Shown here: piece after piece, positions 13,570 to 63,851 of the stretch | Layout of the letters: each line of letters opens with the position of its first letter | Numbering within the stretch: the first letter of the stretch is position 1 | Assembly (NCBI RefSeq): GCF_964204645.1 | Contig: NC_134027.1 | Coordinates: 13,362,485-13,426,484 of the forward strand | Length of the DNA: 64,000 nucleotides | Source of the DNA: Tubulanus polymorphus | Lineage: Eukaryota; Animalia; Nemertea | Direction of reading: 5' to 3' | Notes under the pieces: generated by a model | Database searches by the model: none | What the model saw: only the letters and a program-made list of their open reading frames with translations | Told to the model about the DNA's origin: nothing | Translations under genes and position numbers: made by a program

Positions 13570-14358
13570 ATGGAAGGTGGAATATATGAAATACAAACTA
13601 CAAGTGAAATAATGTCAGATATCTATTATATAATACCTTATGAACATAGTAAGTATTTTGGAGAATTCTATAATCAATTCAAATATAGAATAAGTAAAAT
13701 TGATAATAATAAAAGTGGTGTTGTTGATAATGTAAGTAATGAAATTGATATGTTATATAATAATGTTTTACCTTCTACATATAATAATAAAATAATATTA
13801 GATTATAGTGAAAATAGAAATTATTGTGGTTATTGTAAAGGTGCATTTTCAAACAGCCCATCAAATTGGAATAACCATATGAATACAGCTGTACATATTA
13901 CTAATGTTATAAAACGCGTTGGTTTAAGAGAATTTATAGAACACCCATTTAGATATGTAACAAAGTTTGTTTCAAATAAAAAAGTAAATGGTAAAGATTT
14001 ATATAAAGATTTATTATGTGAATTTTTATCTAAGGAACCTGAACACAGTAAAGATGAATTAGATTTAATTGATGCTAATAAAATATTAGGATCAAACATT
14101 GTAAATAAAATATTAAGGTCAAACACTAAGAAAGAGGATATAGTTACAGATAAGCATATTGATAATGAAGATTATTTAGATACAGATTGGACGAAACGTA
14201 AAGTAGTAACTATTAATGATGCGGTAGATCGGATGAAAAAGGATTATATTGAAAAAACTTATGATGATCCGGTAGATAGGGTTAATAGATTGTTAGAGTC
14301 TGATGATGAATTGGAGGATGATGATGAAAATGATGTTAATTATCTCACATTCACATAA
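13570..14358 (+). CDS. Element-specific protein with one C2H2-like zinc finger and acidic tail
   Basis: Intact 262-aa ORF with TAAATG start; CGYC...WNNHMNTAVH. Confidence 0.65.
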   Translation: MEGGIYEIQTTSEIMSDIYYIIPYEHSKYFGEFYNQFKYRISKIDNNKSGVVDNVSNEIDMLYNNVLPSTYNNKIILDYSENRNYCGYCKGAFSNSPSNWNNHMNTAVHITNVIKRVGLREFIEHPFRYVTKFVSNKKVNGKDLYKDLLCEFLSKEPEHSKDELDLIDANKILGSNIVNKILRSNTKKEDIVTDKHIDNEDYLDTDWTKRKVVTINDAVDRMKKDYIEKTYDDPVDRVNRLLESDDELEDDDENDVNYLTFT

Positions 14359-14394
14359 GATAATAGTTGAAAATGGTATAAAATAATAGTTAAT

Positions 14395-14715
14395 AAAAAA
14401 GGGGTTTTAAGCATTTAGGTATCTAATACGTATTCAATACGTATCTAATACGTATTTAAGTATTTATGTATCTAATATGTATTAATCTAAATAACCTTTA
14501 TTATTTTCAAACTTAGTTGAAAAATTAAAATATATTAGTTGAATAATTAAAATAAATAATATATTTTAAAAAAGGGGGTTTTAAGCATTTAGGTATTTAA
14601 TACGTATGTAATACGTATTTAATACGTATCTAATACGTATTTAATACGTATCTGATACGTACCTAATACGTATCTAATACGTATTTAATACGTATCTAAT
14701 ACATAAATGCTTTAA
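14395..14715. repeat. 11-bp tandem repeat (taatacgtatY)n in two blocks between convergent genes
   Basis: Repeated taatacgtatc/taatacgtatt; leader aaaaaggggttttaagcatttaggtat duplicated at ~14396 and ~14570. Confidence 0.9.
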
Positions 14716-18398: not shown

Positions 18399-19090
18399 TT
18401 AAGATTCAACGTATTTTTCATTATGTGTTGAGTAATTCCATAATTCAACAAATGTCTTTGCTTTACACAGCTGATCCAAATATAACTGAAAATCTAGTTT
18501 ATTTCCTTTCCTAATATTTTCAACTTTTTCTAAAGGTCTTAAGTTTTTCCAGCTCCAGATTAATTTCTGTTTGTCTTCATCATTCATGTTGAATTTAGAT
18601 ATTGGTAACACATGATCAATATGAAAATAATCTCCATAATTATCTATATTCATTTCACCATTGAACTGATCTATAATCTATGATTTTAAGAATTCATCTG
18701 AACAACCCAACAAATTAGATAGTGTTTCTGAGTGTTTATCTTTACCGAATAGTTGTGATAATCTAGAACTTAAACATCTTCTCATTTTAAAATTAAAATC
18801 TGTTTTATACCTTTCATTTTGATAATTATTACTGTAATCATTATAATGTCCACGATTATTATTTCTCCATTCTCTCATATATTCTGTCATATAATCTGGG
18901 TGATTTGTAAAATATGTTTTATTATTCTGTTTCCAACATGTTTTACAATTATTTCTTAAACTATCTTTCTTAGTTTTTGTGTGTAATATTCTGTAAATGG
19001 CTTATTCAACTCACATTTTGAACATTTCTTATAGTATATATTAACAAAACTATTTGTAATATTGATAGTTTGTGATTGTTCTGTCTCCAT
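18399..19090 (-). pseudogene. HNH endonuclease of the type common in large DNA viruses, disrupted
   Basis: MNIDNYGDYFHIDHVLPISKF...WKNLRPLEKVENIRKG; upstream FKMRRCLSSRL and CKTCW; TAAATG start at 19090. Confidence 0.8.
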
Positions 19091-19099
19091 TTATTATAC

Positions 19100-22000
19100 A
19101 TATTTTTTTTACTAAAATTTGATATTTCCTTTTCTTTCTCTTCTTCTCTTTTAAATATTAAGTATTCTTCTAAACCATACGCGACTGTATGAATTCCATC
19201 ATCCAGAATATATCTTTTATCATCGAATGGGTTTAAACTTATCTTCTCTATCTCTTCAATAAACATTTCGTGGTACTCAGATCTTAAACATTTCATCTTA
19301 TGTTTTCTAACTTCTTTATTAAATATACAATTGATGTAATCTTTAAAATGAATATTCTTTTCAACAACGCTTTTGGTTATTCCTTTCAATTTCTTTGATT
19401 CATGAGTTTTAGTTTTATATTAATACATTTTAGATCTAATTCCAATGAACTCTATCATTTCTTCACCTCCTAATTCATCCTTAAACTTCCCGGGCACCTT
19501 TTTATTATCATTGCTAGACAATTCATGAACTTTTGGATAATTACTGAAATCAAAATGATGATTTAATGTTTTTAAATCATCTGTTATGTTATTAGTTTTT
19601 ATCTTTGATACGTAACTGTCAGTATCAAAATATAAGATTTCTATATGCTTTTCTCCAAAATGAGGTTGTAATACGTTATAATAGAATTTATACATTAATA
19701 GTTTTGATATTTCTAAAACTGTTGCTCCAACATAAATTGGTTTATTAAATTTCATAGAAGTTCTCATTTTAACTGCAGCTAAATTTTCATCAAATATTCT
19801 GTTACCAGTAAATTTAGGATATGTTTATAAATGCCTTATCCTTTTACCATTACTAACTAACTCAATATCATTTCTATTTCTAATATTTTCACAAGTCTTA
19901 CCATAGAATGCATTATTCATTAGTTTGAAGAAATCTTTCTCGAAATCAGTTTTAGCTTTAGTTCTCTGTTTCGTGTTGAAATCTATATATTTTTCTAACC
20001 ATTTTGATTGACTGAATGAAATATTCCTATGTACCTTTTTTTTAGAATCATTTTTTAGAATCATTTTTTAGATTTAAATAAAACTTCAACATTCTATAAT
20101 AAACTACATAATTATATTTATCTTCCTGAGTTACCATTAATTTTTCTGTATGAATATGATTTTCGGGTTTAATTCTTTTTTGATAATTTGATAATTCTTC
20201 ATGTGTTACAGTTTTATGTTCGGGACAGTATGCTAGATTTCTGGATTTAAATTTTTTATCTTCAGGATATTCCAAGTCTACAACAAAGAAGTAACAAGTA
20301 TCTGAATCATCTGCAATATCTAGAATTCTTTTCTTCCAATCAAATTTAACATTATTTTCATGTTGTAAAACTTCACTTATTTCAAATACCACATAAGGTT
20401 GTGGTTCCATCATTGCCCAACCATATAAATTCTTTGCATCTATATATAATAACTTATATCCAGGGTTATCATTTACATTGAAATATCTATCACCTAATAC
20501 ACCTGAAACTCCTCCTCTTATTGATTTTTCAAATAATAATAATTGATCTATATTTGTGAACAAATCCATTTTTATATCTGTAAATTTTAAACCACAGTCC
20601 CAAGTTAATCCTGGACTAGAATAACAATGGCAAGGATCAATATTGAAATATTTTAGATTTACATCTCTAAACCTTTCAAATACATCTGATTTTAAATATA
20701 AATCTACTAATCCTCCATGATTTTTTATTTTGAAATGATTCCAAATATGCAATGTGCTATTATAAACTCCATCTTTAACATATTCATTTTTTAATTATCA
20801 TAGAATTGTTCTTTTAATAATTCAGTTATATTGAAATCATTATGCGATTTATAAAATGAATATGGAATTGCTCCTTTATATTTCATTAATTGAAAATCAT
20901 CATTATTTGGATAATGTTGTTTTAATATTTTTAATTTATCATCAACTAATGATTTTGATAAATTATCTAATGAACTGCTTAAAAATCTATATGAATCTAT
21001 AAATCTTAGACACCCAAATTGGAAAGATATATAATTCTCAGATGTTTTAGCTAACATTTTGAATTTATAAGTTGGTATTTTAGCAACACCTTTTGATCTA
21101 TTTGAATTTAATCTTTCTATTTCATTATTGATTTCTTCTATTTTATGACATAGCTGTTTGATGAATAAATGAGCATCATACCCTGGTAAATTATGAAATA
21201 TTACTGGAACAAAATTGATTTTCTTAGCTTGTAAGTTACAATTCTAATGCGCTGCACCTCTAAACTTTCCGTTCAAATGATTATGGTCTCTAACGTTTTT
21301 ATCTTTAAAATTAAATGTCTTTTCACAATAAAAACATTTATCTGCAAACTAAGATTCTTCTTTATCTTCTTCTGTCATTATAATTTCTATATTTGTATTT
21401 AATAGTTTACTAAATTTTATTTCATACTCAATTAATAAGTCACAAAAATGATTTATGACATGTTCATTTCTATAATGATAATATTCACTTTTAATTAGTT
21501 CTGGATAATCAGATTTTATATATAATCCAAAAGCTGCAGCAATTTGATGAATCTTTTTAATAGTATTCGTTATCAGAGGATCTGAATAATCAATTATATC
21601 ATTTTCAGAATTTAATTTCTTTCTTTTATAATATATTTCTTTTCTATCTTGATCAGTTAATTCCTTATTTAATGATTCAAAATCTCCATATATTACAAAT
21701 GGCACTTTATTCTTGTAATCATATTTTTTGAATTCTAATACTTTATCCTTTTCATTTGGTAAAACTATTTTACAATAATCATGATTATCGCATAATTGCT
21801 TATGATTTAATAATGCCCTTTCATTACTGAATTTAGTTATACATTTTCTACATAGATATATTTTATTGTGGTTATTTTCTGTTCTAAAAGATAATTCTAT
21901 TTGTTTAATCCACACATAATGATTTTCATAATATAATATATCTATAACACCATTTGAATCATAATCTTTTGATAAATACAAAGGTTCTAATGTAAAATGT

Positions 22001-23128
22001 TCAATTTTATTGCCTTTTGTTTTTGGTAATTTGACTAAATCAAACACATTTAGCTTTATTCTATTATCTCTTTCTATTTGTGGTATTTGTTTAATTCTAG
22101 CAGGATAATTATCTATCTTATAATTATTTTCAAATGGTTTATAATGCGTTAATCTAAAACTATGAGTAATATCTTCTGTTGGATGTAAGCAACTTATAAT
22201 TGACCATAGAACACATTTATCATCTTCATTTTGTACATTTATAACAGCATTAGTTTTAAATGGTAATTTTATATAACTTGGTCCATTTATATTATCATCT
22301 ATATAATATGATAAATTATTTTCATCAATTGGGTTCGATTTAGTAAATTTATTATATTTTGTGTTATAAACATGTAAAGTCATAAATATTATTTCATCGA
22401 ATATCAAACCAGATCCTTCAAAATATTCCTCTTCTATCTTATTTTTTATTTCATTATAACATTTATTTAATTTATCATCTATATGTTGTTTAGATGTGAT
22501 ATATTGTGAATGGGAATTTATATTATATATTGGTTTATCTTCTGATTTTAAAAATTTAACTTTATATACTCATTTTAGGGTATTCTACGTCTGTAATTAT
22601 TTTTACAATATTTTTCATATTTTCTAAATGTTTTTTTTTTTCTTCTAATGTTTTACCTTTATGAAATTTAAACTCGATAGCGGCTGGTCCTATATCACTT
22701 TTGAATGCTTCGGTTATTTATATTTCCTTTTTATTATCTAATGAATTAATATAATTTCTTACATCTTCCATGTATGGCCTTTTATTGTCTATTTCATTTT
22801 TTATTCTTTTAATTGTCTTCTGTTTCTCATCATTATCATTATCAAAATAATCTTCACCTAAAATATCATTATTCATATTTCTAATACGACTTTTAGATTT
22901 TAAATGTTCTTTATAATATCTTTTGTTACTAAATGATTGATTACATGTGTCACATTTATATACTTCTTTTTCATTCTTTAATTCATCTAATTTAGTTTCT
23001 AATATATCATCTTTATATTTTAACTTTGATTTATTTTCTAAATGTGTTTTAGTTTTATTATGTCTTGCTTTTTGAGATTTATCTATATCAATTTTACATG
23101 TTGAACAGTAGTACTTATTTGCTTCCAT
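19100..23128 (-). pseudogene. polB: Protein-primed family B DNA polymerase (intein-free allele), fragmented
   Basis: YGDFESL (Exo I), YIDAKNLYGWAM (motif A), KLMNNAFYGK (B), YFDTDS (C), KMY; N-terminal zinc fingers. Confidence 0.95.
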
Positions 23129-23171
23129 TTTAATATCCAATTTTTTTAATTAAAATTGATTTTACATATTT

Positions 23172-23473: not shown

Positions 23474-23567
23474 TTTGATAACATATTTTTTATTAAAATT
23501 GCTTTTAGAAAGTATTAGATTAATATTTGAAGAGTAATAGGGATAATAGGTGTTCATAACAATGGTT

Positions 23568-23619
23568 GAAAGGTCGAAAAATAAATTCGAGTGTGCGAGA
23601 ATTTATTTTTCGACCTTTC
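23568..23619. repeat. Perfect 21-bp inverted repeat (hairpin, 10-nt loop) at the element 1 end
   Basis: gaaaggtcgaaaaataaattc-gagtgtgcga-gaatttatttttcgacctttc. Confidence 0.95.
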
Positions 23620-23636
23620 GACCTTTGGTATGGCGT

Positions 23637-24700
23637 AGTAGTAGTCGTAGTCGTAGTCGTAGTCGTAATAATAATAATAATAATAATAATAATAGTAATA
23701 ATAATAGTAATAATAATAGTAATAATAATAGTAATAATAATAGTAATAATAGTAATAATAATAGTAATAATAATAATAATAATAAAATATAGCTGCGTAG
23801 CAGCGATAACGGGTTTCGCTAATAGTAATTGTAGTAGCAGTAGCAGTAGCAGTGGCAGTGGCAGTGGCAGTGGCAGTGGCAGTGGCAGTGGCAGTGGCAG
23901 TGGCAGTGGCAGTGGCAGTGGCAGTGGCAGTGGCAGTGGCAGTGGCAGTGGCAGTGGCAGTGGCAGTGGCAGTGGCAGTGGCAGTGGCAGTGGCAGTGGC
24001 AGTGGCAGTGGCAGTGGCAGTGGCAGTGGCAGTGGCAGTGGCAGTGGCAGTGGCAGTGGCAGTGGCAGTGGCAGTGGCAGTGGCAGTGGCAGTGGCAGTG
24101 GCAGTGGCAGTGGCAGTGGCAGTGGCAGTGGCAGTGGCAGTGGCAGTGGCAGTGGCAGTGGCAGTGGCAGTGGCAGTGGCAGTAGCAGTAGCAGTAATAA
24201 TAGTAATAGTAATAATAGTAATAATAATAATAGTAATAATAATAATAGTAATAATAATATTAGTAATAATAATAATAGTAATAATAATAATAGTAATAAT
24301 AATAATAGTAATATAGTAATAATAATAATAATAGTAATAATAATAATAGTAATAATAATAATAGTAGTAATAATAATAGTAATAATAATAATAGTTATAA
24401 TAATAATAGTTATAATAATAATAGTTATAATAATAATAGTTATAATAATAATAGTTATAATAATAATAGTAATGATAATAATAGTTAAATTAATAATAGT
24501 TATAATAATAATAGTTATAATAATGATAGTTATAATAATAATAGTTAAATTAATAATAGTTATAATAATAATAGTTATAATAATGATAGTTATAATAATA
24601 ATAGTTATAATAATAATAGTAATAATACTAATAGTTATAATAATAGTAGTTATAATAATAGTAATAATAATAGTAATAATAATAATAATAATAATAAAAT
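23637..24700. repeat. Compound microsatellite: (AAT/AGT)n, ~55 x (GGCAGT), (AATAATAATAGT/TATAATAATAATAGT)n
   Basis: Directly visible; source of the poly-SG, poly-AV and poly-I ORFs. Confidence 0.97.
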
Positions 24701-25253
24701 ATAGCTGCCTAGCAGCGATAACGGGTTTCTGCCTAACTGGTTTACATGTCGCCCTGGGAAGCGTATAAAGATTTCATCGAAAAATTCTAATCCGTCCATA
24801 ACATATGACTATTTCCAAGAAGCGCAACCTGGGTCAACGTAATGCTGGATATGTGGATCCGTAAGGACTACCACGTAAAAAGTACTGATGGACCAAGTCT
24901 AGTCAAAATGGCTTTGAGGATACCGAAGATATAGTACCCTGGTGGCAGTTGCATGAACTCGAAAAAGTCTCGTGACGATGCAGGTGGTAGCCGAGAAAAA
25001 GAAATATTTTCGAGGAAAATTTTTGAAGACACAATGCAAACACACTTATTGTTCACTTTCTTTCCTATCACTATTTTGGAAATTGAAGTATTGTAATAAA
25101 CAATAGATTTTGTTTGGCAGGTCATCTTGCTCAGGATTCTGTTTATCAAAGCATCGGAGCAATACAGACTAACTTGTTTAAGTCTCCGATGCTGCGAGGC
25201 AGGGCGGTCATTATATTGCTGGCTTATCCAAATTAAACCAACAGAAGTAATAA

Positions 25254-25595
25254 ATGGAGAGTAAACAAATACACAGCGAATTCTTAAATAGAATCAAAGA
25301 TACTACAAATGTCAAATCTGTAGATTATAAATTCAAAAAGTAAACAGAATTAACGTTACATAAGAAATATTTAATTACAAATATTGAAACAATTACCAAT
25401 ACATATGATAATGAATTAGTTAGTCACTTAGAATATGAAGGATTAAAAGGAAATACATATGAATTCAGAACATATTTACCAGATAGATTTCATAGATTAT
25501 CTAGTGAAGTTCTAGAAGAAGTGTGTTCTGGTGATTTCTATTTAATATATAAAGGTATGAATGAAAATGGGCACCATGATATAAATTTCGAATAA
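25254..25595 (+). pseudogene. TIR-embedded small protein, left copy of element 2
   Basis: atggagagtaaacaa... homologous to 23172-23473 and 36050-36413. Confidence 0.7.
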
Positions 25596-25631
25596 TATAA
25601 AATCCATTTTAATACAAAATTTGATATCAAA

Positions 25632-36026: not shown

Positions 36027-36049
36027 TTATTTTACATATTTTTATATTA

Positions 36050-36413
36050 TTCAAAATCTATATCATGGTGCCCTTTTTCATTCTTACCCTTATATGTGAA
36101 ATAGAAATCACCTGAACATAATTATTCTAGATCTTCACTTGATATTCTATGAAATCTATCTGGTAAATATGTTCTGAATTTATATGTATTTCCTTTTAAT
36201 CCTTCATATTCTAAGTGGATAACTAATTTATCTCCATATTTGTTAGTAACTGTATCAATATTTGTAATTATATATTTCTTATGAATTGTTAATTCATTTA
36301 ACTTCTTGAATTTATAATCTACAGATTATAAATTAATCTACAGCATTTGTGATATCTTTGATTCTATCTAGAAATGATTTGTTGTTCTCACTGTGTACTT
36401 GTTAACTCTCCAT
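36050..36413 (-). pseudogene. TIR-embedded small protein, right copy of element 2
   Basis: Inverted homolog of 25254-25595. Confidence 0.7.
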
Positions 36414-36577
36414 TTTAATAACATATTTTAAATCAAAACTGAACATAACACTTACCTCTCAACGCGTCCCGCCGCCACGTATGAGTCCCACCACGTTTGC
36501 GTCCCGCCTATTTATACTACTATATATATACAGTGGGGAAAACCCAGTTGCGTGTTGAGACTTGTAAATTATGAGGC

Positions 36578-40039: not shown

Positions 40040-41560
40040 AAACAAGATTTCTTCAGGATAAAAACTACGTCCAAATATCTGGCTAAAGTACTCCCCGGCT
40101 CTGGGTACTTTTTCTGATTCTCACATTCGGCACAATATGATTCTTTTAGACAAACTCAAAAATCTCAAACCTGATTGCCAAGAATTTATATCTTTCGACG
40201 CTATATCCTTGTTTACAAATATACCATTGGAACCAACTCTCAATTTATTAAGAAGAAATTACTCCCGGACTCCAATCTTGATCTCCCGATTCCTGTAGAT
40301 TGCTTACTTGAACTTTTGGAGCTCTGTACAACCAATCTATACTTCCAATTCAAAGACAATTTCTATGAACAAATTTTCGGTTTCGCTATGGGTAACCCAT
40401 AATCCCCCATTTTGGCTAATCTTTTCCTTGAACATTTTGAATCCGAAATTCTTCCCAATTACGCTGGCTCTAAACCTAACTTTTAGAGATGTGTTGATGA
40501 CATTCTGTGCTTAGTTTCTGATGATTTTGATCTTAACTCTTTTATTGACTTCATCAGCTCTCAATATCCATCTTTGAAATTCACATTTGAATGGGAACAA
40601 AATGACCAAATTCCGTTTTTAGATGTTCTAATCCACAATAAATACTCTCATTTGTTTTTTCAGTCTACCGTAAACCGATCAACGCTGAGGCATATCTCCA
40701 TTTCTTTTCGTTTACTGCTAAATCAATCAAAATTGGTCTCGCTCAAGGCCTCTTTCTCCGTGGACTGCAGATCTGCGATGAAACCTTCCTTTCGGCTGAA
40801 TTTGACCATATATCCAACTCTCTTAAAAAATTGGCTTACCCTGATCACATTTTGAAAATCGCTATTTCTAAGGCTAAACGTACTTTCTTTAACTCTAAAC
40901 CTCCAAAAAATAAAAAACACATTTCAGAATTCATTGTAGTTCCGTATGTACCTGTTTTGGAAAAGTTTCGTCACTCTCTCCCTTAAATGGATAAACAAAT
41001 CATTTTCACGTATGAAAACAAAATTAGCAAGACTTTGGTAAAAAACAATCAATCTAAACCTTTGGACTGCGGAGTTTACGAAATTCCATGTTTTGGCTGT
41101 GATAAAATGTACTTTGGAGAAACTGGTCGTGATTTAAAAACTCGAATTTCGGAACACAAAAAGGATATAATAAATCAAAAACCGGCTAGTGGCGTAGCCA
41201 ATCACGTTTGGAACACTGATCATCGTTTTAATTTTGAAAGCCGAAATTATTTATACTTCCAGCAATTACACTAAACGCCACACAGTTGAGTCTGCCCTAA
41301 TTACTCGTCACTCAGATATTAGTACCAATCTAAATAATGGCTTTTCTTCCAACAATTCCATTACTCCATGCCTTGCCAAACACTAATTAGTTACTCACTC
41401 ACCAATTTACTCAATTAACCTGTTCTCCTCTTTATATATACCCCTGTTTTTAGTCAATATCTCACACCTGACGATGATCTCTAGTGTGAGATTGAAACGT
41501 CGTGTTCTTAAATTTTAGATTGTTTCAATAAATAATTCTCGATTTTAGATTTCTTTTAAT
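40040..41560 (+). mobile_element. Penelope-like retroelement, 5'-truncated and decayed (RT + GIY-YIG)
   Basis: SFDAISLFTNIP, FYEQIFGFAMGNP, RCVDD, KFTFEWEQNDQIPFLDVLI; GVYEIPCFGCDKMYFGETGRDLKTRISEH; TATA at 41431 and AATAAA at 41527. Confidence 0.92.
41464..41505 (+). ncRNA. Minimal type I hammerhead ribozyme in the Penelope pseudo-LTR
   Basis: acac-CTGACGA-t-gatctc/tagtgt/gagatt-GAAAC-GTC-gtgt: conserved core, stems I and II, palindromic ACGT in place of stem III. Confidence 0.85.
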
Positions 41561-48056: not shown

Positions 48057-50861
48057 TCATCAGCCGGCCGCAGTGACACCAACGCCGACATCGCTCTCTG
48101 CGACGTTTTGCATGCGTACATGCATCAGAGCTTGCCGCTCTAAGATCAGAGGGTCTTGCAAATGCATTCAGAAAAATCGTTCTGTTTTTGTTTTCATTAT
48201 TCAGTGGGGCCTAACAGTTCATGCGTAAAAATAGGTTTTTGTATCCAAATCTTGATTGATATAAATATCTTGGCTGAGACATGAATAATTGGAAAAGTAG
48301 GCTTTCATACCAGAGGACGCGAGGACGAGACACCACTCATCACCACAAGTAATTTTTTTTCCTAATAAATGGGAGAGAATGGACACCAGACAGAAAACAA
48401 TAATGTTAATAAAAATCAATATTATTGCACATATTGTAAAAAATACATCGATACATCTAATAAAACACGACATGAAAAAACTGCAAATCATATAAAAAAT
48501 GTAATAGATTTTGAAACTCCAGAAAATTCCAATGAAAGAAAAGAAAGATTAGAAAATATGAATGTGGATGAAATAAAATGTGAAGTTTGTAATGAATTTA
48601 TAGTAAAAAGGAATTATAATAGACATCTCGAATCACAAAAACATTATAAAAATTTAAATAAAAATGTTTTAGTAAAAAAACCAAGTTCAAAAACTAAATC
48701 CATTTCAAATAAACCTTACATGGAAAATGTTAGAAATTATATTGATTCATTAGAAATAAAAGATACAATTGAAATTTTAGAAACATTACGCAGTAAAATT
48801 GGTCCTGCAGCTATTATATTTAGATTTTTTAAAGGTACAACAATAGAAGATTATAGTAAATTTAATGAAATAATAGAAAAAATACTAGATTTGATAACAG
48901 ATGTTGAATATCCAAAAATTAGTATCTCTGGGAAAGTAAGTTTTATAAAGTCAGAAGAAAAAATGGATTATAATATTCAAACACTCTCTGAAGAAATAAT
49001 TTCAAAAACACAAATAAAAGAGAAGTTAGAAAAAATATTTAATGAATTTAAACGTCAAAATGACAAAATGATTGAATTAGAAAGTGATTTTGCAAAATTA
49101 TTAAACAAAAATAAAAGAATAGTTATGACAAAAGAAGATGAAATTGATTTTAATTATGCAACTCATTGTTGTTATTGTGAAAAACGTTTTTATTCATTTG
49201 ATAAAAAAGTTAGAGATCATGATCATTTAAATTCAAAATATCGTGGAGCTGCTCATGAAGATTGCAATTTACAAGCTAAGAAAGTTAATTTCGTACCAAT
49301 ATTATTTCATAATTTATCAGGCTATGATACCCATCTATTTATAAAACAATTATCGGGAAAATTGGGTGCAATTAATCAAGAAATAGAAGAATATAATGCT
49401 ATGAATGGTGTAAATGTAAGAAAATATGATTTTAAACTATTAGCTAAAACATCCGAAAATTATATTTCATTTCAATTTGGTTGCATTAGATTTTTAGATT
49501 CTTATAGATTTCTAGCAAGTTCATTAGATTATTTATCAAAAAGTTTAGTTGATAATGATTTTGTTATAACTCGATATTATTATCCAAATGAACAAGATTT
49601 TAAATTATTGAGATATGAAGGCGCAATTCCTTATTCATTTTATAAAACACACAATGATTTTAATGTAACAGAATTATTAAAAGATCAATTTTATGATCAA
49701 TTAAAAGAGGAGTATGTGAAAGACGAAGTGTTTAATAGAACATTAAATATTTGGAGCCATTTTAAGATGAAAAATCATGGTGAATTAGTTGATTTATATT
49801 TAAAATCAGATGTTATGATATTGGCTGACATATTTGAAAAATTTAGAGAAGTTAATTTGAATCATTTTAATGTTGATCCTTGTTATTGCTACTCTAGTCC
49901 TGGTTTAACCTGGCAATGTGGTTTAAAATATACAAATGTAGAATTAGATTTATTAAAAGAACCAGATATGGTTTTATTATTTGAAAAATCAATTAGAGGT
50001 GGAATTAGTGGTGTTATGGGTGATAGATATTTTAAAGCAAATGATGAATATAAATTATTATATATTGATGCCAATAATTTATATGGTTGGGCAATGATGC
50101 AACCCCAACCATACAAAAATTTTATATTAACAGAAGTTGAAAATGATAACAAAACTGATTGGGAAAGCGCAATTGCGAGTTTAAAAGATGAAGCACCAAT
50201 TGGTTATTTCTTTGTAGTTGATTTAGAATATCCTGAAAATATAAAGTTTAAAACAAGAAACTTACCTTATTGCCCAGAACATTTAACCGTAGATGATAGT
50301 TATTTAAGTGAATACCAGAAGAAAATAAAACCGAAAGATCATGATTTTACAGAAAAATTAATACTTACTCAAAATAATAAATACAATTATATTGTTCATT
50401 ATAGAATGTTAAAATTTTATCTAAAGCAAGGAATGAAATTAAAGAAAGTACATAGATATATTGAATTTAATCAATCGAAGTGGTTAGAAAAAATATATAG
50501 ATTTCAATACTCAACAGAGAACCATATCAAAAACAGATTTTGAAAAAGATTTCTTCAAATTAATGAACAATAGTTTTTATGGTAAAACATGCGAAAATAT
50601 TAGAAATAGAAATGATATTGAATTAGTAAATAATTCTGAAAGATTAAGACATTTACAATCAAGTCCTAGACATTTAGGAAAAAAAGATTTGAAGATTATT
50701 TCACAGCAGTTAAATTAAAAAGAACGTCAATGAAATTTAATAAACCTATATTCATTGGTTCAACTGTTTTAGAAGTATCAAAATTATTAATGTATGATTT
50801 TTATTATAATGTTTTTCAACCACTTTTTGGGGAAAAGCATATTGAAATATTATATTTTGAT

Positions 50862-51926
50862 TCTGTAACAGCTGACACCCCAATATTATTAAAATGTAAT
50901 GATAAAATATTAATTAGAAGAATTTCAGAAATAATTCCAAAACAAAATGAATGTTATATTTCATATGGTGAAAAAGAATTAATACAAATAAATGGATTAA
51001 TGGATGTTTGGACAAGAAATGGATGGAAAAAATTAAAGAATATTATTAGACATAAAACAAATAAGAAAATCTATAGAGTTAGAACTAAATTAGGATTTGT
51101 AGATGTTACAGAAGATCATAGTTTAATTAAACGAAATGGCGATGAAATAAAACCAACTGATATAAAAATTGGAGACGAATTATTACATAAAAGATTTTTC
51201 CAAAGAATGAATCATATGACATTCGATGAAATTATTGATAATATTTATAATATAGAACCCGAAACATTAGAAGAAAAAGAATATTTTATCAAAGGATTTT
51301 TTATGGGAGATGGTTCAGCAGGTGTGTATAAATATGTTAATCGCACTCAATATCGTTGGTATTTATGCAATCAAGATTTGAAATTATTAGAAAGAATAAA
51401 GAAATTCTGCGAAGAAGTTTATTCACATAAAACATTTAGAATCATGGATCATATGAAATCATCCGCGGTTTATAGAATATTTGTAAATAATCCTAAAAAT
51501 TTTGCTACAAAATATAATGATGAATTCTATATTCATGCAATAGTGAAAAGTAATACTTCAACAAAAGAAAAGATAGTTCCAGATTATGTATTAAATGCAA
51601 AAATTAATTTAAGAAAATGGTTCTTCATTGGGTTCTATGCTGCAGATGGTTTAAAAAGTTTCAAAAACCGCAAAACGATATCTTTAGCTCAAAAAGGAAA
51701 AGTTGCTATATCAGGATTGAATATATTATGCAATTCATTAGGTTTTAATATGAATATTGGATTGATTAAATCTAAACCAAATTGCTTTTATTTAAGCCAT
51801 GTAGAAAATGAGTTAACAGAAGAAGTTAAAGATTTATTTGAAATATATAACCCAACAGATTATGTTTATGATTTATCAACTGAAGATGGTACATTTAACT
51901 GTGGATTTCCATTAATAGCGGTCAAT
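50862..51926 (+). mobile_element. Intein (355 aa) with LAGLIDADG-type homing endonuclease
   Basis: Block A SVTADTPILL, block B VDVTEDHSL, FIKGFFMGDGS and FFIGFYAADG, block F YVYDLSTEDGTF, terminal AVN followed by +1 Thr; removal restores YFDTDSY as in 19420..19767. Confidence 0.95.
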
Positions 51927-52368
51927 ACTGACAGTTACATACTAAAAATCAAGACAAATGATATAACAAAAGACTTAAAAACATTAAAACATCATTTTGA
52001 TTTTAGCAATTATCCCAAAGATCATGAACTATTTAGCAATGATAATAAAAAGATTCCTGGTAAATTTAAAGATGAATTAGGGGGTGATGAAATGATTGAA
52101 TTTGTTGGGATAAGAAGTAAAATGTATAGTTATAGAACAAAAGATCATGAAGCTAAAAAGTTAAAAGGAATAACAAAACATGTGGTTGATAAACATATAG
52201 AATTTCAAGATTATATAAAGTGCTTATATAACTCAATTGTAATGAAACACAAAATGAATTGTTTAAGATCAGAAGATCACGAGATATACATTAATGAAGT
52301 TGAAAAAACTAGTTTGAATCCATTTGATGATAAAAGGCATATTTTAGATGATGGAATAAAAACATTAC

Positions 52369-52849
52369 TATTCTGCCCGTGCGGCAGATAGCGAACCGGA
52401 AACCGACGAAAACGCAAACAAACAGGCAATTCCGGAGAAGTCTGTATTTATTGATACGCCGTCGATTCGAGACGGTAAAAAACTGAAATAACAGAGATAA
52501 TTTTAATTATTAACTGAAACGACTAAATAAACTAAATCTCAGGACAATGAATAAAGGATAAATGCTTACACTGTACGTGGGCAAGTTCCAAGGTAGATAC
52601 GCGAAGAGATACAGATACGCGGATGTATGGAAGATTTTCCTAGTTACAGCAAGTATTAGCAGACAATAAAAATAGACACGTATACGGAAGTAAACAAACT
52701 CCGGGGAACTAAAAAATACGTATATAGACTCTGGAGCTAAACCGCGGTTACAGACTCACTAAACTGACTGTATAAAAAAGTGTAGATCTCACTACAGACA
52801 AGCACTAAATCTAAATGCATGCATAACGATGTAACCATGTTACAGCACA
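52369..52849. mobile_element. Probable solo LTR (481 bp) with 5-bp TSD
   Basis: ATTAC duplicated at 52364-52368 and 52850-52854; ends tattctg...cagcaca; removal restores KTLPYGY*. Confidence 0.75.
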
Positions 52850-53012: not shown

Positions 53013-53063
53013 TTTTTTGATGGGTTTCGTCGTCAGACGAACCCATCTATGGCATCGTCGTCA

Positions 53064-53107
<44 letters not shown>

Positions 53108-53130
53108 GATGTTTCTTTATGACACGATTT
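53013..53130 (+). mobile_element. DINE-1/HINE-like (Helentron-associated) fragment
   Basis: T-run, hairpin gatgggtttcgtc-gtca-gacgaacccatc, then (GTCT)n/GTCC microsatellite. Confidence 0.55.
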
Positions 53131-54949
53131 AAGCTGTTTGTGTGGACCGACAATTCTGTAATTTCACACAGGTATTCTCTACTTGATGTAGATGGTGCAG
53201 CTTGGTTTATATTTGATTCCGATGGTTATAAGTGCTCTAATTTGGTTAAAAGATAATTAACGTTACTCGCTAGTTCAAGCCGCTGTATAGCGCGTTGCTA
53301 CGACGACGCTCGATCAACATACTGGTACTCGCTGTGTAATACTGAACACGTGATCGTACTAGCACCGGTTTTAGATAGCGCGCGCGCTGATCGGTCTTAA
53401 CACTTCTCGGAACTGCTGTGCTAAATGCTGATAGGCCGAATCTATGCGCAATCATTTATTGGGCTCGTCACATTTGATAGTGAATGGATAAATAACCGGT
53501 GTCAATGACGGTCGCTACTCCCCATCAGTATAACTCATCAGTATAAGAAATAATTCTTTCGAGTTTTTTTTTTCAATCCCCGAAGTTGTTGTTACTATGT
53601 TGACCTCGCCGTTTTATAAGCTTACCGATGATTCTTCTAGTATTTTCAGGGTCACAAGACATGACGAAGTCGCAAAGTTTTGTACAAATTTCACGAAACA
53701 AACAATTATTTAGGCGGCACCTGATCTATTGATTAATTATGATAAATAATGTTTATTTCATTAAAAATTTGTTTTATTCAAACACTACTTTCATCGCACA
53801 TAGCGTGATCGGTAGGCCCTACTATTCTACGGTAGGCCATGGACTCTTTCATGTGGTAGGCCTATTACAAATGATACAATCCGCGTGTCCGTGAATAAGT
53901 GACACGTGGTGGGGCGGGTTGTGAGGAGCATCGAAACTAATCCGTCACAAATAATAGATAGAAAACAATACCTTAAGTGGTTAACTTTTATTAACATCAT
54001 TACCAAATCAAAACCTGCACATCCTATCATAAATAGAAATTCTAAGAATTCATTTCAAAGAATAATAAATTACGTCTAAATTTTGGGATTCGAACTCGTA
54101 GCATCGATTCAGGTGCCTTTCCCAAAGCGGGTATCCCGCGGGGAAAACCCATTACTATTTATATCGAGAATCGCCTTTTTGCGACAGCGCCACGGCGCTG
54201 GAGCATATTAAGTTGATCGAACCACCTGGTGTCTTCCAATACCACCACCTAGTGGGCTCAAATTCAAGTTCAAATATACTTTATTGATACTCATCAAATA
54301 TACTTAATTGTTACTTTATTCAATACTTTATTGTTCCCAGTACGGCAAATACATCGGATTTCCGCAATTAAGTAGACAGAACACAAATAAAATCAAGAAT
54401 CTTTTAGTATTCAGAAAACAACGTACATGTTATTTTTCAATTTTAATTAGCAATGAGATAATTTTTTGCGACACTCACGGATGATGCGCATTCCCTTTCT
54501 GGAAGGCTGATCGGCTCTTCCCTGAAAAATTAATTTCTGAATCGACGTCCCGTAATGATGAATACTATTTTTAGATCCCCTGATTTCAAAATTCAAAAAT
54601 ATAGATTTATATGAACCTTAGGGGTACCCTTGTAATTAACAAATTATTCGAAAGCAAAGATCTTGCATTTTAAGCATTTTCTTTATTTCAAGCCGCCGAA
54701 TTGATTGTCTAAATCTCTTTGCTCTTCTCGGAACTTGTATTCAATTAAATTTTCTATTCTCATTCTACAATTTGTACATGAATACTATCAACGGTAGCAT
54801 TTGTTTCTTTTCATTTCGTTTTTCATAATGATTTTGTAATATTTAAATCTTCATTTTATCGCGACGGGTGCTTCCGCTTTTAAACTGTTCGTTTGTTACT
54901 TCCGATTTTGTAATCTTCTTTAATTTATTCATTCTTTATGACTTCTCTC

Positions 54950-56291
54950 TCTCCAAAATCGGAATAATTGTATCCTTAGATACAATAGGATCTTGATTTT
55001 TAATGACTTTGCAAAACCATCTGTCGCAGTATATTTCCTTTTAGAAATATACCTTGTTGACAGCGAGTTCGGTGAATGAAACAGAAACAATTACACAGAA
55101 ACCCATCATGGAAAGTTTCTTTCTGGTGTTTGTTAATTCATCAAATGGAATTATAATATCTAGGTTTAAATAATTTACAATCTTATTTAAAAAGAATTCA
55201 TAATTTATTGAATCTGTTATTCTATTTTCCAAATAATACATTATTATTTGTTTGAATATTTTTTTTATATTTTTCATATCTTCTTCTGTTAATTTAGGTT
55301 TTTCATAATAATCGTTAAATAATAAATATAAATACATTTTCTTTTGTTTTGTGTTAAATGTTGACGGAATAATTGTTTTTATAATATCTTTTTTTGTTAT
55401 TTCACCATTTTTATTTTCTATCATTTTCATTTTTTCAAGCCATTGCATATATTCTGGTGTATGATCTTCTATAGAAAATATTTTAAAAATTTCATCAAGA
55501 TAATTTAATTTTGGATCTATGAGAAAATTTCTAGTTTTTTCTTCACCCAATAAATTCTTTTGCCATCCACATTCATTACAAAATAACACAGTACCTTCTT
55601 GCCCTAAGGTCGTATAACTACATTGTGGACATTTTCGTTTATAATTTATTGGTAATAGATCTTCATTAAGCTCTTGGTATTTTCTTACGTTTTCTTTATG
55701 TTTTATTGTTCTATTATGTAGATTTGAATTACTTGTTGTAATAATCAATTTACAATATTTACAATAATATGTTTTTCTTGTTAATTCATTATATTGTTTT
55801 TCTAACTTTTCAACTGTTTCCTTATTATCTGGTAACGTTTTCTCATATTTTATTTTTTCTAATAAATTATTTTTTCTTTCATTGAATTCAGTTTCAAATT
55901 TATTAGAAATTTTATCTATATGTGCTTTACGAAATTGATGATTCTCCCAATCTTCTATATTTTCAGGGTTATATTTTATTCAACAAGGCTTACAGAAATG
56001 ATCTTTTATATTATCCTTGTCATAGAATAAGAAAGGTCTTTTCCAAATAATTTCAGGTTCAACTTCAACAGAATTACTATTACTTTCATTACTATCAACA
56101 TTAGCCGTTGCACCATTAATTTTACACTTCTCTGAATGTTTTTTAACATAATTTCTTGAGAATAGTTTATTACATTTTGGGCAGTTTAGTTTAGGGGGTT
56201 TATAATTTTCTTCATGTTTTTTCATATGTCGAGCCATATTACTTTTTCTTAGAAGTTCACCACAAATTTCGCATGCTATCTTCTCATCCAT
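54950..56291 (-). pseudogene. Multi-C2H2 zinc-finger protein fused to a VLTF3-like late transcription factor domain
   Basis: 55980..56291 and 55041..55748 are in frame across one TGA; CPQC..FCNECG zinc ribbon; IFKQI...SINYEFFLNKIVNYL resembles the VLTF3 NY.Y.L.K motif; 3' end approximate. Confidence 0.6.
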
Positions 56292-61489: not shown

Positions 61490-62735
61490 ATGAGTGGGAG
61501 TTATATAAGTCGTTCTAAGATTTCTAGAATATCTAATGCTATTAAAGCAGAAAGATCACATCATATAATTACTCATAATCCTTCAAATATTAATCCCGAT
61601 GAAACTTTATATGTTAGAATTCCTAGATTAACACAAAATACTTTTTATGTTCCCAATAGTATTTATTTATCAGCTGATATAAAAGTAATTGGTCATGATA
61701 ATAATTATGTTGTTGATAATGTTGGGAGATATTTGATTAAAAAATTAACTATAAAGATTGGTCCAGAAACAGTTTTCTCATTAGATGATTATAATTTATT
61801 TATGCATTATAAAGATTTATGGTTAACTAAAGAAAATAGAAATAATATGATATTTCAAGGAATCCAATCAGAAAACCATAATAAATTAAGATCCGGAGCT
61901 AATGACGCAATAGTAACTCGTGCCACAGATAATTTGATTAAAAAGATTTATGGAAGCAAATATAAAATTCCATTAGACTTTGAATTGATAAATAATAATG
62001 CACTTTTATATAAATACGCAATTCAAGAAGATATTATATTTGAGATAAAATTTGCTCCTGTAAATGAAATTGTATTATCTAGCGTTGTTAAAGATATGGG
62101 TTATAAATTATCGAATATATGTTTAGAATATGACACAGTAACTAATGAAAATATTGCTAGCACAATTCAAACTCAATACAATCAAGGATTTTCATTATTA
62201 TATGATTATATTGATAAATTTAAAACTGTAACTATTAATGCAAATGATAAAATAATTAATGAGAATATTAACTTCCCAAGAAGATCTATTAAAGGTATAT
62301 TAATATTTTTTACCATTGCAACACAACATATACTAATGGCGCAATAAAGGTAGATAATTAATATAATCCTGAAATAACAAAAGTAGAAATAACTATCGAA
62401 GGAATAGCAAATAAAATATTATGTCAAGGAATGAGAATGACTGATCAATGGCCAGAAATTAGAAAACATTTTATGAATGAAAAAGTAAAATCATTTGAAA
62501 ATTGTAATATTAATCAAATTGATTATTATACCGGCAATAAATATGCATTATGGTTAGAACAACAGAGGATAATTCATTACATGGTTCTGGAAAAAAACTA
62601 CAGAACACTAAAGATGGAATACAATTATTCATGAAAAAGATAAGAGGAGACAAAAATTTTAAAATGCACATTTATATTATATCTGATGCCCAATTAAATA
62701 TTGTAAATTCACAATTAGATAGTATTCAATATTAG
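61490..62735 (+). pseudogene. Putative major capsid protein, frameshifted
   Basis: Near identical to 12280-13537. Confidence 0.75.
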
Positions 62736-62765: not shown

Positions 62766-63851
62766 ATGGGAGGTAAAAAAACTACTAATACTAAAGAACA
62801 ATATTTAAGAAATTTATATTACAACCCTGAGAGTTCGGTTGCTTATTCTTCTACCAAAAATATATGGCGCCAAGTAAAACAAGATAAATTAGATAAGATA
62901 ATCCCACATTTAGTTAAATATAAAGATATAAATGAATTTATGTTAGAACAACCAACATATACAACACATAAAAAAATTGTTAGAAAATATAAAACTCGTA
63001 AAACTATGGTAAGTTATGTATATCAACAGTGGCAAGGAGATTTAATTGATATGAAAAATGTTAAGAAAGATAATGATGATTATTGGTGGTTATTGAATAT
63101 AATTGATATTTTTAGTCGTTATGTATGGAGTTTCCCACTTTATAGAAAAGATGCTGTACAAACATCAAATGTTTTAAGAAAATTTCTTTCGGATGATAAA
63201 CTAAAACCAGAAAAAATACAATTTGATGATGGAAAAGAGTTTGATAATTCACTTGTTCATGAACTCTTAGATAATCATAATATTAAATATTTTTCAACAA
63301 AATCGGATAAAAAAGCAGCAGTTGTTGAACGATTTAATAGAACATTAAGAACAAGAATGTGGAAATATTTTACAGCAAATAATACTTTTAAATGGATTGA
63401 TGTTTTACCAAAATTGATAGAAGGATATAATAATTCTTATCATTCTTCTATTGGAATGAAACCTATTGATGCTAGAAAACCTGAAAATGCTGAAATTGTT
63501 TGGAATAATTTATATGGAGCATTTCTTGTAGATGATTTTGGTGAACCTAAATTTAAAGTTGGTCTAAATGTTAGAATTTCTAAGTATAAAAAGATATTTG
63601 GTAAAGGATACGATCGAAATTTTACTAGAGAAATATATGAAATAAAAAAGGTAATAACAACAAAACCATATGTCTACTTTTATGAAGAAGAATTAAGTTT
63701 AACTACAGAAAATCTAGAACAAGAATATAAAATTGAAAAAGTATTAAAAACAAAAACTATTAAAAGAAAAAAATATTCTTTAGTAAAATGGGTTGGATGG
63801 CCAGATAAATTCAATGAATGGATATTGTCAAGTAAAATTAAAAATATATAA
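62766..63851 (+). CDS. RVE integrase with C-terminal chromodomain
   Basis: WQGDLIDM, IDIFSRY, QFDDGKEF, VERFNRTLR; YKIEKVLK...LVKWVGWPDKFNEWI; small in-frame deletion near 63675. Confidence 0.95.
   Translation: MGGKKTTNTKEQYLRNLYYNPESSVAYSSTKNIWRQVKQDKLDKIIPHLVKYKDINEFMLEQPTYTTHKKIVRKYKTRKTMVSYVYQQWQGDLIDMKNVKKDNDDYWWLLNIIDIFSRYVWSFPLYRKDAVQTSNVLRKFLSDDKLKPEKIQFDDGKEFDNSLVHELLDNHNIKYFSTKSDKKAAVVERFNRTLRTRMWKYFTANNTFKWIDVLPKLIEGYNNSYHSSIGMKPIDARKPENAEIVWNNLYGAFLVDDFGEPKFKVGLNVRISKYKKIFGKGYDRNFTREIYEIKKVITTKPYVYFYEEELSLTTENLEQEYKIEKVLKTKTIKRKKYSLVKWVGWPDKFNEWILSSKIKNI

Follow-up and report, generated by a model that had tools for sequence, protein, structure and literature searches.

The DNA polymerase gene of an endogenous Polinton carries an intact intein with a LAGLIDADG endonuclease domain, inserted into motif C of a protein-primed polymerase (pPolB). 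The gene lies in the window, the stretch of 64,000 nucleotides analyzed here. At positions 50862–51926 of the plus strand, 355 codons without a stop run from SVTADTP to AVN between the YFD and TDS of a family B polymerase, so that the insertion point falls after the first Asp of motif C and before TD (YFD/TDS; the slash marks the site). Both junctions are fixed because a paralogue on the minus strand, in which the site is empty, aligns with the gene up to position 50865 and again from 51925. The features of the intein-bearing element and of the paralogue are as follows:

48369–50861, plus strand: part of the polymerase 5' of the intein
50862–51926, plus strand: intein of 355 aa, open frame, Ser1 to Asn355, followed by Thr(+1) (from the ORF, profiles and the empty paralogue)
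50862–51191, plus strand: N-terminal Hint (splicing) region, approximately aa 1–110, with block A SVTADTP and block B TEDH
51267–51800, plus strand: LAGLIDADG (DOD) homing endonuclease domain, approximately aa 136–313, with acidic residues D150 and D262
51819–51926, plus strand: C-terminal Hint region, approximately aa 320–355, with block F VYDL and the end GFPLIAVN (from sequence, alignment and model)
51927–52368, plus strand: C-extein, beginning with TDS
52369–52849, no strand assigned: secondary insertion of 481 bp in the last polymerase codons, flanked by 5-bp direct repeats, probably solo-LTR-like
61490–62732, plus strand: putative double-jelly-roll major capsid protein, fragmented (Capsid_N, Atlas)
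62766–63851, plus strand: retroviral-type integrase with a chromo-like tail (PF00665 at 62766–63848, E 2.2e-10, above cut-off)
19009–23149, minus strand: second, fragmented Polinton polymerase, with an empty YFD/TDS near 19620–19625

The first-pass annotation, made from the sequence alone, had described an in-frame insert of 1065 bp with SVTADTP, TEDH, two LAGLIDADG motifs, VYDL and a final AVN before Thr, and its coordinates, frame and motifs proved correct (T83-E-D-H86, GFFMGDG with D150, GFYAADG with D262, and VYDL at 335–338). The Hint-domain match on which that reading was to stand or fall was also found: the NCBIfam profile intein_Nterm (TIGR01445) matched aa 2–88 with 30.9 bits (cut-off 24.5), and solved inteins were the top fold matches. 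The N-terminal Hint region is furthermore all-beta in the structural model and aligns to PI-PkoII, the sole PDB sequence match of the intein (E 4e-6). The Pfam profile LAGLIDADG_3 (PF14528) matched with 29.3 bits (cut-off 22.5), and the endonuclease domain is also defined by model helices at 136–150 and 248–262 and by matches to I-DmoI. Intein_splicing (PF14890) scored 33.5 bits, slightly below its cut-off of 35.8. The AlphaFold model, built on a 12-row alignment (pLDDT 87.6, pTM 0.89), shows beta-strand Hint regions at either end and an alpha/beta endonuclease core between them. When this model was compared with the PDB by Foldseek, the TliVMA, PI-PkoII, PhoVMA, PI-PfuI and PI-SceI inteins were best (E 3e-17 to 4e-11), and among viral models NCLDV polymerase entries were best (TM up to 0.84). 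All class 1 residues are in place (S1, T83/H86, D337, N355 and T+1), and the penultimate residue is Val and not the usual, non-obligatory His. By each defining feature that the sequence allows to be tested, this is a class 1 intein of the PolB-c (pol-c, position III) family, and self-splicing is predicted. A base-composition shift marking recent transfer was looked for and rejected, the intein being like its exteins both in GC (0.255 versus 0.239/0.269) and in GC3 (0.149 versus 0.121/0.201). Its observed/expected CpG is 0.78.

The protein-primed assignment of the host gene comes from 3541 matches at E ≤ 1e-50, many with PF03175 on record; the PF03175 profile itself was weak on the paralogue of the window and gave no match on the intein-bearing copy. 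The latter is a decayed fossil, because two frame changes lie upstream of the intein (at approximately 50.49 kb and at 50.68–50.70 kb) and the 481-bp insertion interrupts the last codons; the intein would therefore be out of reach of translation from the polymerase start. The first-pass annotation had remarked on an intein free of lesions beside a frameshifted gene. This is as seen, but it lacks significance: with 3 lesions in 2935 extein bases, the chance of none in the 1065 intein bases is 0.34–0.40, and the unbroken intein was discarded as a sign of selection or of recent arrival. The empty paralogue is 74–76% identical in nucleotide sequence to the intein-bearing gene on either side of the insert. 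The 24 identical bases round its empty site are unexceptional, as runs of 29, 24 and 23 occur elsewhere between both genes. The sequence at 52369–52849 is identical to the end of a 3905-base contig (X1) and near-identical to the end of a 6973-base contig (X4), as a young solo LTR might be.

Three elements, decayed and related to one another, lie in the window (at about 7.2–23.5 kb, 25.3–36.4 kb, and 48.3 kb to the window end). Their GC content is approximately 23–24%, their capsid blocks are 82–90% identical, and the spacers between them are gene-free DNA of 36% GC. In having capsid-like, integrase and polymerase genes they follow the Polinton plan, and the earlier description of the intein host as an endogenous Polinton-like virus holds on the protein-primed polymerase and the PF00665 integrase. 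The capsid gene matched Capsid_N at E 0.003, below cut-off, and Atlas capsid clusters at 0.96–0.97, with recognition below the Atlas threshold. ATPase and protease Pfam matches were absent among the 48 window ORFs; the intein-bearing element extends past the window end. The two other Polinton-type elements lie head to head at 7200–36415, and the neighboring one has inverted ends at 25252–25602 and 36040–36415. The third element differs from the other two in the order and orientation of polymerase and integrase, and its integrase is only 70% identical; these differences point to module swapping between Polinton subfamilies. Two nested secondary insertions (53017–55126 and 54179–55056) are missing from other copies. 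A long simple-repeat tract lies between two elements (23500–24800) and an 11-bp tandem array within the first (14357–14710). Observed/expected CpG is 0.54–0.61 in the Polinton segments and 1.0–1.4 in the spacers, and the low values may stem from element-targeted methylation or from viral composition.

Copy number in the species was analyzed in raw reads (X5) that carry the same species label but come from another sample and study; approximately 12% of the run was read. Depth over the intein was 233, 184 and 129, the four extein bins upstream of it had 240–311, and the bin with the lowest coverage had 19. The intein therefore exists in many copies, and most close copies of the gene apparently carry it. 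Reads skipping the secondary insertions numbered 156 for the 481-bp one and 177 and 334 for the two nested ones, so that in other copies the polymerase is joined to the capsid-integrase block. The first frame break was not shared by 197 of 228 reads, and the lesions are therefore copy-specific or assembly errors. Among the 15 joints listed of 174, none was that of an intein-skipping read. Differences within the intein fell at third codon positions in 5 of 8 cases among the 40 rows listed (670 further rows), a weak signal. Each intein junction is also crossed by contigs (X1 records 1 and 2, X4 record 19).

Searching with the intein among longer proteins gave 321 matches at E ≤ 1e-10. The best 120 of these included ten protein-primed polymerases whose intein occupies the same site, among them 6 of the best 7; the remainder were mostly RNA-primed-type PolBs, with some type II topoisomerases. 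A profile search of representatives gave 2110 matches (E ≤ 0.001). Altogether, 422 complete distinct inteins were extracted from 291 proteins and at least 268 loci, of which 350 occupy xxD/TD sites in motif C of a polymerase and 17 have a protein-primed host. No pPolB carriers were found among those extracted from the at least 268 loci, which come from the matches listed in scans of viral, metagenome and prokaryote-genome contigs. The window intein is 40–62% identical to the 17 distinct pPolB inteins and at most 42% identical to any RNA-primed-type one, and its nearest relative, the partial P0126, is 74% identical. A GFPL-type ending is common to all 17 distinct complete pPolB inteins, and 17 of 17 keep Ser1, the block B His, both LAGLIDADG acidic residues, the block F Asp, the final Asn and Thr+1.

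For the trees, prokaryotic NHE/SPR-site inteins and those longer than 400 aa were dropped (336 left) and the set was reduced to 149 representatives; a 69-row tree contained all 33 pPolB or GxPL-ending rows and 36 of the 116 others. Ten pPolB inteins formed one clade in this tree (SH-aLRT 100) and in a careful 24-row tree (100/99), on a long stem (0.44–0.45) among giant-virus-type PolB-c inteins. Its sister in the quick tree, with a support of 87, was a clade of 23 GxPL-ending rows, a placement that collapsed in the careful tree. Six genomes of this GxPL clade are Imitervirales, five of IM_01 and one of IM_07, according to the part of the PMC8575486 supplement available (6 of 12 names found there); P0019, P0021, P0022 and P0135 are further carriers. 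Inteins of these uncultured Imitervirales (IM_01 genus g329, and IM_07) have the top non-Polinton identity to the window intein, up to 42%, and share the GxPL C-terminus. The window intein belongs to an old clade of Polinton-polymerase inteins, probably gained and lost repeatedly. The first-pass annotation had pointed to a resemblance to the Mimivirus intein, but the immediate relatives are other Polinton inteins (40–62%). Its idea that an intein passed between a giant-virus PolB and a Polinton PolB survives insofar as the nearest non-Polinton relatives are giant-virus-type, but the age of the clade speaks against a recent single jump.

The penultimate Val had also been singled out at first pass. 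It is present, but as an oddity it fails, since residues other than His are ordinary in the 350 same-site inteins (His 166, Lys 143, Ser 17, Phe 13, Val 3, others 8). The missing His is no family-level obstacle because 184 of the 350 are without it and the Mimivirus and HaV01 inteins, in the available part of the PMC5784728 supplement, end in Lys-Asn. A special mechanism with Val was ruled out as a family feature, and the residue may reflect private drift: because Val occurs in only 3 of 350 and P0126 has Lys, the window copy may have drifted.

The searches also returned related inteins in other settings. PolB-c-related inteins (≤35% identity) occur in type II topoisomerases at DQD/TDG or EGD/SAA-type sites (P0007, P0083, P0091, P0102, P0105, P0107, P0109, P0112, P0114 and P0120), and probably represent non-allelic spread to a look-alike Asp-Thr-Asp motif. 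P0097, which is named DNA polymerase delta and comes from a 1.86-Mb contig of Chloropicon primus, a green alga, has a PolB-c intein at YGD/TDS; polymerase delta is not among the nuclear intein hosts in the available text of PMC5784728 Table 1. Loci L196–L268, many of them from Solirubrobacterales/Thermoleophilia MAGs, hold an actinobacterial intein family of approximately 342 aa at NHE/SPR, with Cys or Ser at position 1 and 19–23% identity to the window intein.

To follow the movement of the intein, we compared intein and extein trees, as the first-pass annotation had proposed: the pPolB inteins form one clade and their presence is scattered over the polymerase tree. Fifty-one homologues have an empty site. 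The N-extein tree comprised 32 rows, 12 filled and 20 empty (71 proteins with an unreadable site and the unalignable P0005 were left out). The filled or empty state requires 8 changes on this tree, and 62–65 of 500 shuffles were equally low, which is a chance-like scatter; the closest extein relatives of the window polymerase are empty. The three main intein groups correspond to the three main extein groups, so that the intein moved mostly inside lineages and some of the scatter may reflect loss. In the main polymerase class, intein identities were 62, 49 and 46% versus extein identities of 55/59, 44/44 and 41/42%, and the intein was at least as conserved as the N-extein in each pair. P0005, which has PF03175 on record, differs in motif A. 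Its intein is 48% identical to that of the window, and its exteins have no BLAST match to the window exteins at E 1e-3. A position of P0005 outside the other nine pPolB inteins was marginally rejected (AU p 0.044, in a test made after the first tree had been inspected).

Homing by break and copy leaves an exchange of flanking sequence that is centred on the insertion point. Among the 15 listed of the 136 members of the P0003 cluster, 7 are filled, 6 are empty and 2 end short of the site. The N-exteins of the empty copies are 95–99% identical to that of P0003, yet 13–19 of the 55 residues from −10 to +45 differ, a span picked post hoc after inspection of the data. Elsewhere these copies have 7–51 differences in 850–1136 residues (Fisher p 5e-6 to 4e-18), and filled copies show 1–3 differences in the 55. 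These site-centred differences are likely a homing footprint. Survival of resistant empty alleles would look the same, and also implies cutting; plain recombination could likewise produce the contrast. Among the 15 listed of the 121 members of the P0008 cluster is an empty copy whose flanks are 100% and 99% identical. The site sequence is TDS in 17 of 17 filled genes and TDG or TDA in 20 of 47 empty ones.

Altogether, we consider it very probable that the intein is a member of the Polinton-polymerase clade, with splicing predicted and spread by cutting of intein-free Polinton copies likely. Class 1 splicing would proceed through an ester at Ser1, transfer to Thr+1 and cyclization of Asn355. 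Splicing is needed to rebuild motif C, therefore the polymerase would tolerate the parasite only while the intein splices. Once excised, the protein would cut the polymerase gene of other copies where the site is empty, whether these are chromosomal or being replicated. Repair of the double-strand break would then copy the intein by gene conversion, with exchange of short flanks between Polinton copies that are dispersed or replicate together. A single ancient entry from the PolB-c pool of giant viruses may have been followed by one or more later jumps from one class of protein-primed polymerase to another, distant one. The fuller account, in which these are animal nuclear inteins of a giant-virus-derived clade that act as a gene drive among invertebrate Polintons and jump between polymerase classes, is the one we lean towards, with some reserve.

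This account depends on where the DNA resides. Location of the elements in a eukaryotic chromosome is well supported, because the window contains a cluster of decayed copies, nested insertions that have target-site repeats, spacer repeats of high copy number, and a retroelement-like fragment. This fragment (40487–41271) is decayed, has a reverse-transcriptase-like VDD motif and a GIY-YIG end (weak, E 0.003), and is one which we take to be a Penelope-type retroelement; its first Atlas clusters include two all-eukaryote ones with few records and, at equal score, one bacterial. Telomeric repeat runs were absent from the window. The host is a eukaryote and probably an animal, likely an invertebrate. 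That the intein is real and the host is a protist or another non-animal eukaryote, which would make this one more protist or virus intein, seems to us unlikely. Such a host would fit the lack of host genes in the window (73 short ORFs; tRNA, Rfam and Pfam searches), the nearest capsid relatives on short metagenomic contigs, and the integrase-linked pPolBs also described in Metamonada and Oomycota in the accessible part of bioRxiv 2023.08.22.554363; the same text describes such polymerases as most abundant in invertebrates. The gene-free, repeat-rich spacers, with a read depth of up to approximately 990 versus 19, and the length of contigs with related filled polymerases (up to 1.02 Mb) argue for an animal, as do the GIY-YIG fragment, in whose two all-eukaryote Atlas clusters Arthropoda and Chordata are commonest (a lead only), and the relative P0012. 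The record of P0012 is labeled as a MAG of a symbiont of the clam Ctena, and its DNA is probably from the clam host. An insert produced by an assembly chimera or a giant-virus contaminant fragment is hardly credible. The frame breaks of the window gene, missing from many reads, may be assembly errors, but the junctions are exact, in frame and at the motif, raw reads of another sample and study cover them without a break, contigs cross them, the same arrangement is found in ten unrelated database proteins, and the base composition of the intein is that of the extein.

Two further explanations concern the history of the clade. A single ancient entry with vertical inheritance and many losses, in which homing has ceased and the flank differences reflect ordinary recombination between subfamilies, would agree with the broad congruence of intein and extein groups, with intein identity tracking extein identity within the main polymerase class, and with change counts that do not distinguish gain from loss. 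We regard it as improbable, given that both acidic residues of the endonuclease are kept in every complete pPolB intein, that the intein is no less conserved than the N-extein within the class, that filled and empty copies differ chiefly around the site, that TDS is invariant in filled genes and often replaced in empty ones, and that P0005 requires transfer between polymerase classes. Precise intein loss is itself usually explained through the homing cycle. It is also possible, if doubtful, that the transfer was reversed or indirect, from a source that is unsampled (for example animal-infecting iridoviruses) or with Polintons as donors to part of the giant-virus pool. Either the trees have no root or their outgroup is not monophyletic, the sister relation collapses in the careful tree and the stem is long, and the available text of PMC5784728 Table 1 gives DNA polymerase inteins in Iridoviridae. 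Against this, the pPolB clade makes up a single small branch in a diverse set of several hundred PolB-c inteins of the RNA-primed type, it shares the GxPL-type C-terminus with the 23-row clade that includes Imitervirales IM_01 and IM_07, and the allele is also archaeal in the part of PMC549080 available. Entry from the giant-virus pool followed by homing among Polintons is the reading that we retain.

Inteins at the same motif C point are present in the PolBs of Mimivirus (APMV R322) and Heterosigma akashiwo virus (HaV01), with YGD/TDS there and YFD/TDS here, and in the sources as available the Mimivirus intein also agrees in length (351 aa versus 355) and in its Ser/Asn/Thr nucleophiles. The first-pass annotation was right about the site, which the accessible part of PMC549080 gives as YGD/TDS, with a pol-c allele that is also archaeal; the same text doubts single homing events across distant hosts. 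It was also right about the likeness to Mimivirus: within the part of the PMC5784728 supplement available, IRHKT, GFFMGDGS and KSSSVY stand in the Mimivirus/Mamavirus rows, and IRHKT, TEDH, GFFMGDGS and KSS are common to Mimivirus/HaV01-type inteins and the window intein. The GFPL string of the C-terminus here was not in that supplement as searched. Unlike in Mimivirus and HaV, the host is a protein-primed Polinton polymerase whose exteins lack BLAST-detectable similarity to RNA-primed PolB, and the element is integrated in many copies in a eukaryotic genome. Nucleases inside Polinton pPolBs have likewise been described as HNH/VSR domains (bioRxiv 2023.08.22.554363; PMC11071308), and PMC11071308 suggests that such domains stem from intein invasions. 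In the available passages these domains are fused to the polymerase ahead of its catalytic core and a splicing domain is not described, whereas here a full Hint and LAGLIDADG arrangement sits in the active-site motif; the words intein, LAGLIDADG and homing do not occur in the accessible text of the nematode Polinton paper (bioRxiv 2023.08.22.554363).

Homing-endonuclease inteins in eukaryotic nuclei are likewise known from fungal VMA1, Prp8 and Anaeramoeba (PMC10710043, in the passages available, which do not mention polintons or animals). According to the available part of PMC5784728, nuclear inteins occur in fungi, algae, amoebae and other protists, and viral ones in four NCLDV families including Iridoviridae and in unclassified viruses; iridovirus inteins are likewise in viruses of animals, and viruses are proposed as vectors. 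In these known nuclear cases the target is a single-locus host gene, whereas here it is a dispersed multi-copy mobile element. A text search of the PMC5784728 supplements available found neither polinton nor maverick. Metazoan genomes are stated to be intein-free in the part of PMC8529194 available, which agrees with the first-pass statement that inteins are not recognised in animal nuclear genes. The word intein does not occur in PMC8502044 or PMC11071296, nor, by listing of the part available, in PMC11131425, and the mentions in PMC12220804, PMC3671162, PMC13768754 and PMC5718144 are generic only. The literature covered, with Repbase, InBase, most subscription papers and bioRxiv supplements outside its scope, describes no splicing intein in any protein-primed polymerase, whether of a Polinton or not. 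What is probably new here is therefore the class of intein host, the protein-primed polymerases of endogenous Polintons, and residence in an animal.

A multi-copy intein family in endogenous Polintons would revise the statements that inteins are absent from metazoans and that viral ones are found only in NCLDV families and unclassified viruses, the genes being viral and not those of the host. The metazoan absence has been used as an argument for inteins as selective drug targets (PMC8529194, in the part available). Polinton inteins would also mark past physical contact between Polintons and giant viruses. The accessible part of PMC549080 asks how the insertion site of an intein can stay the same in hosts that ordinary homing should be unable to bridge; Polinton inteins bear on this question, and the two classes of intein host here have little in common beyond the motif. 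Where a single family has both filled and empty alleles and their flanks have been exchanged, homing among dispersed repeats would become measurable in genome data, and one could also test if the Polintons of animals are still replicating and recombining.
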